Shown one piece after another: positions 33,961-36,819 of a DNA stretch of 52,438 nt. Position 1 is the first letter of the stretch, and every line of letters begins with the position of its first letter. A program made the translations under genes and the position numbers. Source of the DNA: an uncultured Lachnospiraceae bacterium (lineage in GTDB: Bacteria; Bacillota; Clostridia; Lachnospirales; Lachnospiraceae); NCBI GenBank assembly GCA_948943595.1, contig CARBBL010000001.1:1-52438 (forward strand). Direction: 5' to 3'. Under the pieces are notes generated by a model, which searched no databases, was not told the origin of the DNA, and was given only the letters and a program-made list of their open reading frames with translations.

Positions 33961-35547
33961 TTAAAAATCTGCAAATACTTCCATTTGCTTTTTTAGTTCT
34001 TCTACGATCTCTCTGTTTGTATCCATACGATTTGTAATATCCGCCATATCCTTGACTAAGCTCTCTGTATTGCCCGCAACTCCAGTGATTCCTGTGGCAC
34101 CATCATCAATGGCTTTGGTAATGCTTTCAATGGAAGCGGCTATCTCGATCATAGAGTTTCTAAGGTGGTCAGTTCTGTTGCTAAATGCGTCGATCATTTC
34201 TTTTATATAATCAGCATCCTCTTTGTACTGTCTTCCAGAATGGACAAATTCCTGAAACTCTGCCAAAATAGTTTCGCTTAGATAGTCAGCCATATCCTGA
34301 GAATGTTTTGATAGATTATGTACTGCGTTTGTGACAATCTGATTGACTTCTTGGATACGTCCAGCAGTTTCACTGCAAGAGTTTGCCAAGGATTTAATTT
34401 GTCTTGCAACGACGGCAAAGCCCTTTCCAGCTTCTCCAGCGCGCATAGCTTCTATGGAAGCATTAAGAGCAATCAGATTGGTGGTTGATGAGATCTCTAC
34501 AATATCTTTTGTGAGTTTGTTTACCTGATCTACACTCTTACTATTTTCAATTGCTTCTTTTAATACTTTTAGAATATCCGTGGTTTTTGTTTGAATGGCT
34601 TCTGTGTTTGTCTGTGCTGCTGATTCCATTTCGGTTGCTCGTATTTTCATAGCAGAGGAATACTCCATGATGGTGTTACATTCTTCTGCCATATCATGGA
34701 CATCCTCTTTGATAGTTGTGGCACGATCATTAATAATTGTCGCATTATTTGCCACTTTTTGGATTGCCATAGACAAAGAGCCTGTAAGAGAAGAAAGTCT
34801 CTTGACACTTTTTCCTGATGTGCGAGTGTGTTTGAGTACTTCGCCTGTCACGGTGTCAAGCTTTTGTGAACTTTCTTGAAGAGTGTTCACTGTGTCTTTG
34901 ATAGGGGTTATCACATATTTTTTTATGATTCGAATAGTTGCAAGAACCAATAGGAAGCAGGTGACAATAGATGCAGCAGCAATAATCAGTGAGATCATAT
35001 AGACGATCAAAAGCTTTTGCCGTGCATTGGCTGTCCGCGTACTTACAGCCGCATATAACTCATTAGCATTGTTTGCTATGGCAGAACCGAAGTGAGCAAC
35101 GTCACCATTGGCACAAGCATAGGCATCTTGAGTCTTGCTGTCTGCACTTGCACATACAAGATAAACTAGAGCATGTTTAAAAGAGTCATAATTTTCTAAA
35201 AGTTGTGCATAGATCACTTCTTCGTCTTCTGTGACATAGTTCTTGTATTCCTGCAAATATGTCTCCAATGTTTTTTCTTCATCCTTGATCTGTGCTACAA
35301 CAGTAATCATGGTGGTATAGTCTGTTGCAACAATATGGGATAGTGCCATCTTATGAATATTTGTGGTGGTATGACGAATATTTTGCAATGTTTCTGAACC
35401 TACCATATAGATATCTACGATTTTAGAAGCATTGGAATTTACATTATTGATACTAAAAACCGATAAGGCACTGGAAATCAATGCCACAATCCCCAAAAGG
35501 ATGATCGGAAGTATCAGGCGTTGTTGTATGGTGAGTTTTTTCTTCAT
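33961..35547 (-). CDS. methyl-accepting chemotaxis protein (second, with periplasmic sensor domain)
   Basis: TM, a periplasmic domain of about 150 aa, a second TM and an MA domain are present. Confidence 0.9.
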
Positions 35548-35577
35548 CTTACATTAACAAATCCTTTCAATATATAT

Positions 35578-36819
35578 CTACCTTGCAGAAATCTGTTCTG
35601 CCATCTCATCTAATTGCTTTTGTAAGTTTTGACCAGAAGGATTTCCAGCCGCCATATTTTCTGCAAATTTTGAGACAGGGTCCCAGAATTTGCCGCCTAT
35701 GCGCTGAAGCTGAGAAAATTCGGATTGCTCTAAAAGAGCAGTGATCGCTGGTGATTGCTTGACTTGTGTTGAGCCTGCGACAGTGATGTTTGATGGTCCT
35801 TGACCGCGCATTTCAAAGCGGAGTTGTTGGTTTTCTTCGTTAGTGATCCATTCGGCAAGCTTGGATGCCCATTGGGGATGGTCAGAATAAGCATTTACCC
35901 CGATTAGTTTGCAACCTGAAAAAGAAGCCATCTGTACTTGGCGGCCATTACAAGTATAAGTGGGCAATTTAGTAGCCCCCGTATTGTCACCCCAGACCTC
36001 ATTGATCGGAACAGAATTCCATACACCGCTGACGCCTGCAATTATTGTTCCATTCTTTACTCCATTAAGAAATTCTTCGTCTGTACAACTGGAAAATCCT
36101 GGATTTCCTGCAATCTGGAGCATTGATCGCGCTACGTCAATCCCCCGAATGTCACCATCGGCCTGATTCCATGTACAATAATTAGTGATTCCGTCGTCGT
36201 TAAGTCCAACTTCAAGTCCTGTATTCCCAAAAAAAGAATATACATACCATGCTGAAGACCAATCCATAGTAAATAATTTATTGTGAGTGGCCGCTGCTTG
36301 TAATATGCCGTCTAGTGTTTTAACTTGCTCTTCTGTAATATATTGTTTGTTGTAATACAAGAAGTAGCCGTTATCTGCCGTCAATGGATAGGCGTATAGC
36401 TGATTGTTTATTGTAGCAGCTTCGACGGCGCTTGAAAGATTGTTTTGACGGATTGTGTCAGCGTCATCAATAGGCTCCAATGCTCCAGCGGCGGCGAGAG
36501 CACTTAACTGATCGTCTGCGAAAGTAAATACATCAGCACCGTCTTCCAGCCCACCAAGCAATACATTTTTACACTGCGATTCTCCTTGTACTTCGAATGA
36601 AATTTGAAAATCAGCCTGTCCCTGATAATGTGTCTGAAAACTTTGGATGATCTGATTCATCAGTTCTGTATCTTCCTGTGCTCCCCAGACAACCAATTCA
36701 ACTTTTTCGGATTCTGTATTTTCTGTATTTTCAAAGTCTGTTTTCTCTTGTGTACCACATCCCATAAGCGTTGTGGTACATAAAATACTCAAAAGCAAGC
36801 ACCACATTCTTTTTTTCAT
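35578..36819 (-). CDS. ABC-type extracellular solute-binding lipoprotein (sugar-type SBP family), no cognate permease adjacent
   Basis: It has a lipobox (LMGCG) and an SBP family 1-like sequence, and sits 30 bp upstream of an MCP on the same strand. Confidence 0.8.
   Translation of the reverse strand: MKKRMWCLLLSILCTTTLMGCGTQEKTDFENTENTESEKVELVVWGAQEDTELMNQIIQSFQTHYQGQADFQISFEVQGESQCKNVLLGGLEDGADVFTFADDQLSALAAAGALEPIDDADTIRQNNLSSAVEAATINNQLYAYPLTADNGYFLYYNKQYITEEQVKTLDGILQAAATHNKLFTMDWSSAWYVYSFFGNTGLEVGLNDDGITNYCTWNQADGDIRGIDVARSMLQIAGNPGFSSCTDEEFLNGVKNGTIIAGVSGVWNSVPINEVWGDNTGATKLPTYTCNGRQVQMASFSGCKLIGVNAYSDHPQWASKLAEWITNEENQQLRFEMRGQGPSNITVAGSTQVKQSPAITALLEQSEFSQLQRIGGKFWDPVSKFAENMAAGNPSGQNLQKQLDEMAEQISAR

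Follow-up and report, generated by a model that had tools for sequence, protein, structure and literature searches.

A sugar-binding lipoprotein gene without linked permeases is conserved directly upstream of a Tar-like chemoreceptor gene in Lachnospiraceae and Oscillospiraceae: a probable two-protein oligosaccharide sensor

DNA sequence analysis of the window (the whole stretch of 52,438 nt that was analysed) located a gene for a solute-binding protein (SBP) lipoprotein directly upstream of a gene for a chemoreceptor (MCP). A sequence-only reading of this DNA had proposed that the SBP gene ends 30 bp before the MCP gene; the open reading frames and the gap lie exactly so, both genes being on the minus strand. 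The features of the region are the following:

36860..36888, minus strand: promoter-like site upstream of the SBP gene (TTGCAA, 17 nt, TG-extended TATAAT)
35578..36819, minus strand: SBP lipoprotein gene, 413 aa, CUT1 type (MalE-CycB-GanS-like), proposed ligand-binding co-receptor (Pfam, AF2, Foldseek, cleft residues)
36703..36819, minus strand: SBP signal peptide, lipobox (LMGC, Cys21) and low-complexity tether (sequence, AF2)
35548..35577, minus strand: SBP-MCP spacer of 30 nt, terminator-free and carrying the ribosome-binding site GAAAGGA
33961..35547, minus strand: MCP gene, 528 aa, encoding TM1, a four-helix-bundle sensor, TM2 and, directly after it, the signalling hairpin, without HAMP
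35014..35445, minus strand: extracytoplasmic four-helix-bundle sensor domain, aa 35-178 of the MCP (AF2 helices, alignment columns)
33867..33901, minus strand: intrinsic terminator hairpin with a U-run, 60 nt past the MCP stop codon (inverted repeat I1)
20971..28607, minus strand: che gene cluster encoding CheR, CheB, a response regulator, CheA, CheW, a second MCP (4HB and HAMP) and a CheY-like protein (Pfam)

The predicted terminator hairpin had a folding energy of -17.6 kcal/mol (z -5.3), and none of 200 shuffled sequences folded as well. The spacer between the two genes appeared unstructured (-2.2 kcal/mol, z -1.2), which is consistent with co-transcription. The promoter-like site is a consensus match only, of a kind no commoner in the region than in shuffled sequence, and is thus a weak, positional indication. 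Together, the promoter-like site, the unstructured 30-nt spacer and the strong terminator are best explained by a predicted two-gene operon of SBP and MCP.

The SBP scored above the curated Pfam cut-offs for SBP_bac_8 (E 2.9e-31; 109.7 bits, cut-off 27) and SBP_bac_1 (45.5 bits, cut-off 26), which places it in the CUT1 SBP family. Its N-terminus, MKKRMWCLLLSILCTTTLMGC, contains the lipobox LMGC, the Cys21 of which is retained in at least 90% of relatives. An alternative start at Met5 (36807), which is the start used by gene callers elsewhere, would give a protein of 409 aa. In the AF2 model a tether of about 17 residues (aa 22-38) precedes the folded domain, whose first strand begins at aa 39; residues 13-34 had pLDDT values below 50.

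The AF2 model of the SBP (pLDDT 90.9) showed the two-lobe periplasmic-binding-protein fold. Its best Foldseek matches were maltodextrin-, maltotriose- and cyclodextrin-binding proteins (TM 0.74-0.79, probability 1.00), the closest solved structures being 5mk9 and 4ua8. Identity to MBP was about 17-19% in the structural alignments. F100, D103, D149, W191, W267 and W379 of the SBP align with W62, D65, E111, Y155, W230 and W340 of MBP, the numbering of which was checked against known residue identities. Five of the cleft positions, those equivalent to MBP D65, E111, Y155, W230 and W340, were kept in 127-128 of 129 MCP-linked SBPs, and the W62 position was aromatic in 106 of the 129. The fold and the sugar-stacking cleft appear intact in the model, and sugar binding is predicted there.

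GanS was the best NCBIfam match of the SBP, although the protein is neither a GanS equivalog (129.5 bits, cut-off 700; NF053763) nor a MalE equivalog (38.6 bits, cut-off 291; NF007011). As a ligand discriminator the GanS score was uninformative: SBPs from gan operons scored below those from maltodextrin operons and below MCP-linked ones. The candidate ligand class would be an alpha-glucan or beta-galactan oligosaccharide; galactan operons harbour the nearest transporter relatives, so a maltose-like ligand is not a given.

The earlier assignment of an extracytoplasmic sensor to the MCP was confirmed by matches to 4HB_MCP_1 (E 2.5e-16) and TarH (E 7.9e-8) and by a domain of about 144 aa between two hydrophobic segments (approximately aa 12-34 and 179-207). 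AF2 modelling of the full-length MCP with database homologues gave low overall confidence, and the model was used for the sensor region only; there pLDDT was mostly 81-95 over aa 50-170, with one 10-residue block near 61 and one near 69. Four helices (7-71, 77-102, 107-135 and 140-243) were seen in the model which, with the two Pfam matches, identifies a TarH-like four-helix-bundle sensor. The same 4HB_MCP_1 domain was present in 42 of 43 partner MCPs.

The cytoplasmic part matched MCPsignal with a modest score (76.4 bits, cut-off 34.6), and its PDB sequence matches were Thermotoga MCP signalling domains and Tsr. The hairpin tip motif is conserved, E366, A367, G371, G374, G376 and F377 being invariant across the partner MCPs, which identifies a signalling domain. 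No Pfam match to HAMP, a domain typical of MCPs but not universal, was obtained between TM2 and the signalling domain of the 528-aa protein; HAMP occurs in 28 of the 43 partner MCPs, and these are about 49 aa longer. A search of the 528-aa MCP for the canonical methylation motif, [ASTG]2-x2-[EQ]2-x2-[ASTG]2, also gave no match, this search covering canonical sites only. The same motif is missing from 40 of 81 close MCP relatives, while 577-aa relatives retain HAMP together with the canonical site SALTEELSAT. The 528-aa MCP is a reduced form without HAMP and without the canonical methylation motif. For these reasons, and because its MCPsignal score is modest, it may signal or adapt atypically, and a loss of both elements in its sub-branch may point to a receptor that does not adapt or is coupled differently.

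Pfam analysis of the window covered 40 of the 53 open reading frames of at least 100 aa, the remaining 13 overlapping longer frames. The sequence-only reading had noted that no permease or ATPase genes accompany the SBP gene. This was borne out: the only ABC genes in the window are of Opp type (two ATPases and one permease, 48011..52209) and lie 11 kb away, no BPD_transp_1 sugar permease was found among the scanned frames, and the CUT1 permease EAA motif was absent from the 52,438 nt. Within the window, then, no cognate permease genes are encoded with the SBP. No Rfam family matched the window, and a scan for DnaA boxes showed no enrichment.

Che partners are encoded nearby, in the cluster located 5 kb from the pair, which could be the recipient of the signal. 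The second MCP in the cluster carries two canonical methylation motifs. It could be argued that the pair is a sensor with a non-flagellar output, its MCP feeding an alternative Che-like pathway (adhesion, biofilm formation or gene expression). The reduced form of the 528-aa MCP, the extra response regulators in the che cluster and the failure to see any flagellar gene in the window would fit such an output. We hold it to be very improbable, since the hairpin tip that binds CheA and CheW is conserved, CheR, CheB, CheA, CheW and CheY are all present in the window, the 577-aa relatives keep HAMP and SALTEELSAT, and in P. muris the pair has a CheC gene in its vicinity.

Analysis of related loci, a check proposed in the sequence-only reading, gave a strongly positive result: an orthologous MCP gene was found directly downstream of the SBP gene, on the same strand, in all 88 loci, 80 of which represent species-level genomes with SBP identities of 56-82%. 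These loci belong to Lachnospiraceae and Oscillospiraceae, at least 80 species in all, and include the cultured isolates Petralouisia muris, Schaedlerella arabinosiphila, Parablautia muri and Acutalibacter caecimuris. The gap between the two genes had a median of 35 nt over the 88 loci. The flanks differed in almost every species (64 different contexts in 70 loci upstream, 59 in 68 downstream), leaving the pair as the only conserved unit; a third operon gene was rejected, as none is conserved across the related loci. The CUT1 permease motif occurred within 8 kb in just one of the 88 loci. This layout, in which a lipoprotein gene directly precedes a same-strand transducer gene and transporter genes are not linked, is of the BasB-BasT type. 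The orthologous MCP gene also lay directly downstream, on the same strand, at 46%, 40% and 39% SBP identity; at 35% identity the downstream MCP had a different sensor, dCache, an outlier that suggests that coupling to an MCP arose independently at least once more. The contexts of P0323 and P0384 were uninformative, the contigs being too short.

Distances among the SBPs were congruent with those among the MCPs (r = 0.83 for the sensor, 0.88 for the cytoplasmic part). Sensor-specific co-evolution was not supported by the mirror-tree analysis, in which the partial r was 0.27 for the sensor against 0.56 for the cytoplasmic part; the correlation shows co-inheritance only. Orphan SBP genes do exist (PMC9602780), and an orphan transporter SBP could have come to lie beside an unrelated MCP gene by chance. 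The probability of this is negligible: an adjacency kept in 88 of 88 loci across about 60 genomic contexts, with congruent divergence of the two proteins, is far beyond chance, and the synteny data rule such an origin out.

In the wider SBP family, 80 diverse metagenome loci were compared. An MCP gene was found downstream in 48 and permeases were linked in 22, and no locus had both. In the NJ tree, 128 of 129 MCP-linked SBPs fell into one permease-free clade, the monophyly of which was recovered in 15 of 25 bootstraps, a moderate support. The permease-linked sister clade lies in LacI-SBP-permease-GH53-GH42 operons. The cleft consensus was identical in the two clades at 10 of 12 positions, and only five positions (A110, G198, N199, T200 and G281) were specific to the MCP-linked clade, too few to define a docking surface. 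Other relatives of the SBP are fused to signalling modules (Ser/Thr kinases, a BlaR1-type transducer), indicating that the subfamily has been recurrently used for sensing.

These data bear on the possibility of a dual-use SBP which, like MBP of E. coli, feeds both the adjacent MCP and an ABC permease whose genes lie at another place in the genome. Sharing of transporter components, such as the MsmK ATPase, is common in Clostridia. The near-identity of the cleft consensus to that of the permease-linked clade would suit a dual role, and with five clade-specific positions only, a permease-docking surface may persist; moreover, every SBP of bacterial chemotaxis that has been characterised to date serves a transporter as well (PMC8050422). 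We nevertheless judge dual use unlikely, because 87 of the 88 loci have no linked permease, in the wider family either an MCP gene or permease genes follow the SBP gene and no locus combines the two, and the SBP has been inherited with its MCP through dozens of rearrangements.

Conservation within the MCP sensor was higher than in the cytoplasmic arms, which is unusual for an MCP. The invariant and near-invariant sensor residues (S70, H71, A74 and D76; S134, A135, A142, A146, N147 and G148) cluster in two apical, membrane-distal loops. This apical patch coincides with the site of direct aspartate binding in Tar and with the direct ligand site of Tar-type sensors (PMC8050422). The membrane-distal apex is also the region where Tar binds MBP (PMC8050422, references 34-35). 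Because Tar binds aspartate directly there, conservation of the apex does not by itself discriminate between SBP docking and small-ligand binding.

The MCP might accordingly sense a small molecule directly at the apex, leaving the SBP to modulate the response (by competing or buffering) or to play a separate role, such as oligosaccharide capture at the surface. In the case of McpU, an SBP has been reported to compete with the chemoreceptor for ligand (PMC13556227), and the position of the conserved patch would fit direct sensing. Strict co-inheritance of both genes in varying contexts argues instead for a joint function. A receptor screen found that none of 11 four-helix-bundle sensors of gut Clostridia bound a screened small-molecule metabolite, and its authors suspected SBP mediation (PMC11844446). 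Oligosaccharides would also be large for a pocket at the dimer interface of a four-helix bundle. Direct sensing at this locus seems decidedly improbable.

The sequence-only reading had proposed binding-protein-dependent chemoreception rather than transport. Conserved synteny, the absence of permeases near 87 of 88 loci and the split between MCP-linked and permease-linked SBPs support this proposal, and it is on these grounds that we infer it. A transporter-less SBP gene directly upstream of the gene for a Tar-like MCP, conserved in at least 80 species, probably encodes one half of a two-protein oligosaccharide sensor rather than part of an uptake system. It is fairly likely that the two-gene operon specifies a split chemoreceptor, in which the SBP captures an oligosaccharide, docks on the MCP and signals through the Che proteins. 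The SBP, descended from ABC-transporter binding proteins, would be lipid-anchored on the outer face of the membrane and would take the oligosaccharide into the cleft between its lobes. Closed and loaded, it would dock at the membrane-distal apex of the four-helix-bundle sensor, and the MCP would pass the signal across the membrane to CheA/CheW. Swimming would be biased towards plant- or starch-derived oligosaccharides, and the role of the SBP would be signalling, not uptake.

We see an even chance of a broader reading, in which a largely monophyletic MalE/GanS-type branch, which in gut Lachnospiraceae and Oscillospiraceae comprises hundreds of clusters at 50% identity, left ABC transport and became obligate, hard-wired co-receptors of Tar-like four-helix-bundle MCPs, serving chemotaxis of gut Clostridia to the products of dietary glycans. 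If true, this would account for the failure of screens to find small molecules that bind the four-helix-bundle sensors of gut Clostridia.

Motile members of the Lachnospiraceae and Oscillospiraceae rank among the main gut fermenters of fibre and have many four-helix-bundle chemoreceptors. For these receptors the cassette offers an SBP-MCP pair that is concrete, genetically defined and widespread; the authors of the 2025 screen (PMC11844446) had guessed at SBP mediation. Through such a pair, gut commensals could perform chemotaxis towards oligosaccharides (starch or galactan), and it would be a clean case of a transporter component turned to signalling. The thousands of pairs found in nature would permit an SBP-MCP interface to be mapped by co-evolution. 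Our literature searches found no earlier description of the cassette; their coverage was incomplete, so novelty is unproven. Judged by these searches and by a 2021 review (PMC8050422), this would be the first chemotaxis SBP in bacteria whose gene accompanies that of its receptor instead of transporter genes.

The pair shares with MBP-Tar of E. coli an oligosaccharide-type SBP of the MalE fold, a Tar-like four-helix-bundle MCP and the proposed docking at the membrane-distal apex. MalE, however, is a free periplasmic and mainly a transport protein, encoded in the mal transporter regulon away from tar (PMC8050422), whereas the SBP described here is predicted to be lipid-anchored and its gene adjoins that of the MCP. 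The MCP also differs from Tar in lacking HAMP, and Tar in addition binds aspartate directly.

The closest transporter-type relatives of the SBP are GanS (CycB), from the galactan operon of B. subtilis, and two maltodextrin SBPs, EUR_01830 of E. rectale and MalE1 of L. casei; these are linked to permeases and sugar-degrading enzymes, and the SBP of the pair has no such links.

In clostridial systems whose sugar SBPs are dedicated to signalling (XylFII-LytS of C. beijerinckii and CuaD of Ruminiclostridium cellulolyticum), a permease-less sugar SBP of Firmicutes is encoded beside a membrane sensor, as here, and the periplasmic domain of LytS is TarH-like, as is the MCP sensor (PMC8050422 Table 1; PMC10384115). 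The output of those systems is a histidine kinase and transcription rather than an MCP, and XylFII belongs to Peripla_BP_4 whereas the SBP of this study is of CUT1 type.

The gene order is that of BasB-BasT and CosB-CosT of Halobacterium salinarum, where the gene for the binding lipoprotein immediately precedes that for the transducer, transporter genes are missing and the binding proteins are dedicated to signalling (PMC8050422). Those archaeal systems use Peripla_BP_6 or OpuAC binding proteins, dCache-like sensors, and amino acids and compatible solutes as ligands (PMC8050422 Table 1). The Pfam families of the pair reported here, SBP_bac_8 and 4HB, differ from these, and its resemblance to them appears to be one of architecture, not of homology.

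The solute-binding lipoprotein (SBP) gene, the chemoreceptor (MCP) gene and the 30-nt gap between them were found where the sequence-only reading had placed them, and its assignments of an SBP lipoprotein upstream and of an MCP with an extracytoplasmic sensor both held in domain searches.

Features of the locus and the che cluster:
36888..36860, minus strand: promoter-like site, TG-extended, a consensus match only
35578..36819, minus strand: SBP gene, ORF of 413 aa
35548..35577, minus strand: SBP-MCP spacer, 30 nt, with a GAAAGGA ribosome-binding site
33961..35547, minus strand: MCP gene, ORF of 528 aa
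33867..33901, minus strand: strong terminator hairpin with U-run (-17.6 kcal/mol, z -5.3)
20971..28607, minus strand: che cluster, by Pfam CheR, CheB, response regulator, CheA, CheW, MCP (4HB, a four-helix-bundle sensor, + HAMP), CheY-like

The layout of promoter-like site, spacer and terminator fits a two-gene transcription unit. No stable hairpin was detected in the 30-nt spacer (-2.2 kcal/mol, z -1.2). GAAAGGA is followed 7 nt on by a minimal start-stop ORF, ATG TAA, which stops 1 nt short of the MCP start codon, so that 14 nt separate the site from the MCP ATG; this ORF might serve in translational coupling or attenuation.

A Pfam scan of 40 of the 53 window ORFs of at least 100 aa (the remaining 13 overlap longer ORFs) identified no sugar-type ABC permease or ATPase alongside the SBP, in agreement with the earlier claim; the sole ABC genes it found in the window are Opp-type (48011..52209). 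The window, a stretch of Lachnospiraceae-type chromosome, carries parAB, rsmG and mnmG, and an identical locus is contained in MAG GCA_949051565.1. The complete che cluster is inserted between rsmG (20060..20803) and mnmG (29142..31061), usual neighbours near the replication origin.

Immediately past the MCP terminator, a gene (31178..33643, minus strand) encodes an 821-aa protein matching MVP_shoulder, the major-vault-protein shoulder domain (E 1.2e-20), and more weakly Vault_3 and SPFH/Band_7; it adjoins the SBP-MCP pair solely in the window's own species. Its 5' leader (33644..33866, ~220 nt) contains two pairs of imperfect direct repeats (39 nt at 65-nt spacing; 23 nt at 81-nt spacing) and gave no match in an Rfam scan. 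Beside parAB, two stretches of ~2.2 kb each (7615..9809 and 10563..12771) are free of ORFs of at least 100 aa and hold the GC minimum of the window (0.316); no Rfam family, tRNA or DnaA-box enrichment was found in them. Region 38806..41758 (minus strand) encodes a VanR-like response regulator together with a histidine kinase of 757 aa, the first ~450 residues of which, a large uncharacterised sensor region, have no Pfam match.

The decisive evidence came from synteny among close relatives. SBP homologues of ~80% identity in other species had entirely different flanks and the same 528-aa MCP downstream. Searching GTDB with a single genome for each species gave more than 589 relatives; the 80 best loci, at 56-82% SBP identity, belonged to both Lachnospiraceae and Oscillospiraceae, the majority from mouse-gut MAGs, with Parablautia muri, Schaedlerella arabinosiphila and Acutalibacter caecimuris as isolates. 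The isolate Petralouisia muris also carries the pair. An MCP orthologue lay directly downstream on the same strand in all of these best 80 loci and in 8/8 near-identical loci, with a median spacer of 35 nt and an MCP of 528 aa in most of the 88. The neighbourhood differed in almost every species (70 loci with 64 different upstream contexts, 68 loci with 59 different downstream ones), and no third conserved gene was found beside the pair in the loci compared. SBP and MCP divergences were congruent (r = 0.83 for the sensor, 0.88 for the cytoplasmic part). Since the downstream MCP is constant, the flanks vary and the divergences agree, the two genes are, as judged from these sequences, inherited as a unit; chance adjacency was rejected. 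A CUT1 permease EAA motif occurred within 8 kb in 1 of the 88 loci.

Lower-identity cluster representatives were examined individually for gene context.

Gene context and identity to the window SBP of distant representatives:
P0245, 46%: SBP, then MCP (4HB, HAMP)
P0268, 40%: SBP, then MCP (4HB, HAMP)
P0256, 39%: two SBPs, MCP, pullulanase
P0290, 35%: SBP, then MCP of 724 aa
P0341, 34%: glucan phosphorylase, SBP, two permeases

With distant members as seeds, a scan of metagenomes yielded 80 diverse loci: an MCP lay directly downstream in 48, permeases in 22, and 10 were uninformative; none of the 80 had both. In a neighbour-joining tree rooted on E. coli MBP (maltose-binding protein), one permease-free clade with moderate bootstrap support (15/25 replicates) held 128 of 129 MCP-linked SBPs. 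Comparative genomics thus supports the claim of SBP-dependent sensing over transport, and it is unlikely that the SBP has a double use, feeding a permease encoded far away as well. The lone outlier, the P0290 locus (L098), groups with permease-linked SBPs. There (3122..6787) the SBP is followed, after a 213-nt gap, by a 729-aa MCP with a dCache_1 sensor, not a four-helix bundle, which suggests that this SBP type may have been recruited to a chemoreceptor a second time, independently.

The SBP matched SBP_bac_8 (E 2.9e-31) and SBP_bac_1. Its N-terminus, MKKRMWCLLLSILCTTTLMGC, is a lipobox-containing signal peptide. The lipobox Cys21 is conserved in at least 90% of relatives; residues 22-38, little conserved and modelled with low confidence, would be a tether between membrane and folded domain. 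The AlphaFold2 model was confident (pLDDT 90.9), and its best structural matches were all maltodextrin-, maltotriose- or cyclodextrin-binding proteins: L. casei MalE1, E. rectale EUR_01830 (4ua8), S. pyogenes MBP, T. vulgaris CMBP and T. maritima MalE (TM scores 0.70-0.79, identity 17-25%). A PDB sequence search returned the same set. The reference for the cleft was E. coli MBP, the residue numbers of which were verified by known identities. In the family alignment, MBP W62, D65, E111, Y155, W230 and W340 correspond to SBP F100, D103, D149, W191, W267 and W379; F100 is retained in 106/129 MCP-linked members and the other five in 127-128/129. Because these residues are kept and permease-linked relatives share their consensus, the SBP has retained the look of a functional binder of oligosaccharides.

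Equivalog status was ruled out for both GanS (129.5 bits, cut-off 700) and MalE (38.6 bits, cut-off 291), and the GanS profile score did not separate galactan from alpha-glucan readings. The permease-linked sister clade lies in gan-type operons (LacI regulator, SBP, two permeases, GH53 galactanase, GH42 beta-galactosidase), which point to beta-1,4-galactooligosaccharides. A competing indication, alpha-glucans, is pointed to by the phosphorylase-linked transporter (P0341), the pullulanase beside one MCP-linked pair, PUD/X25 fusions and the solved structures. In one clade with the P0256-type layout (L090, 6001..13257), two tandem SBP genes precede a 4HB-HAMP MCP and a pullulanase (PUD, CBM48, alpha-amylase domains), which hints at alpha-glucan sensing and at a single MCP served by more than one SBP. 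Six relatives (P0345, P0351, P0317, P0267, P0298, P0370) are fusion proteins, with Ser/Thr protein kinases, a BlaR1-type M56 transducer carrying two SBP domains, zinc-ribbon membrane proteins, or the pullulanase-associated PUD and X25 domains.

In the MCP, two hydrophobic segments flank a sensor of ~144 aa matching 4HB_MCP_1 (E 2.5e-16) and TarH (E 7.9e-8). Among 43 partner MCPs, most of ~577 aa, 42 had 4HB_MCP_1 and 28 had HAMP; the window's 528-aa MCP is a derived form that has lost a HAMP segment of ~49 aa. It contains no canonical methylation motif; in longer relatives this position is occupied by SALTEELSAT, and two canonical motifs are present in the window's other MCP. The MCP signalling domain scored 76 bits (cut-off 34.6). 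Output into a non-flagellar Che-like pathway is very improbable.

The full-length MCP model was poor overall (pLDDT 58.6); the sensor was mostly well modelled (10-residue block means 81-95 over aa 50-170, except one of ~61 and one of ~69). Helices spanned 7-71, 77-102, 107-135 and 140-243, and from these boundaries the membrane-distal loops are predicted at 72-76 and 136-139. Invariant or near-invariant residues are grouped around both loops (S70, H71, A74, D76; S134, A135, A142, A146, N147, G148), and the apex residues are conserved even in partners of 27-52% identity. Sensors are usually the most variable part of MCPs, so it is unusual that this one shows higher conservation than the cytoplasmic arms (column entropy averages 1.29 versus 1.55 and 1.35; mean pairwise distance 0.418 versus 0.451 for the cytoplasmic part). 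As the Tar apex binds MBP and aspartate binds adjacent to it (PMC8050422, references 34-35), the conserved patch would fit SBP docking, by analogy and not as proof. Direct sensing of a small ligand by the MCP, with the SBP as modulator, is quite unlikely.

The pair is probably a split chemoreceptor. The lipid-anchored SBP would bind an oligosaccharide, close and dock on the apex of the four-helix-bundle dimer, and the MCP would pass the signal to CheA/CheW; the SBP would have no role in transport. Docking, ligand identity, the sign of the response and the absence of transport are points that we infer.

Functionally the pair would resemble MBP-Tar. According to PMC8050422, the chemotaxis SBPs so far characterised in bacteria all serve transporters as well. 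The only receptor-adjacent chemotaxis SBP pairs listed in PMC8050422 are the archaeal BasB-BasT and CosB-CosT, which share gene layout and lipid anchoring with the cassette but belong to different protein families. Sugar SBPs dedicated to signalling are known in Clostridia as partners of sensor kinases, XylFII-LytS (PMC8050422) and CuaD (PMC10384115), not of MCPs, and no prior description of the cassette was found in the literature searched, coverage of which was incomplete. When receptors of gut Clostridia were studied in 2025, none of eleven four-helix-bundle sensors yielded a ligand, and the authors suggested that sensors of this kind act through SBPs (PMC11844446); the cassette is a concrete, testable candidate for this idea.
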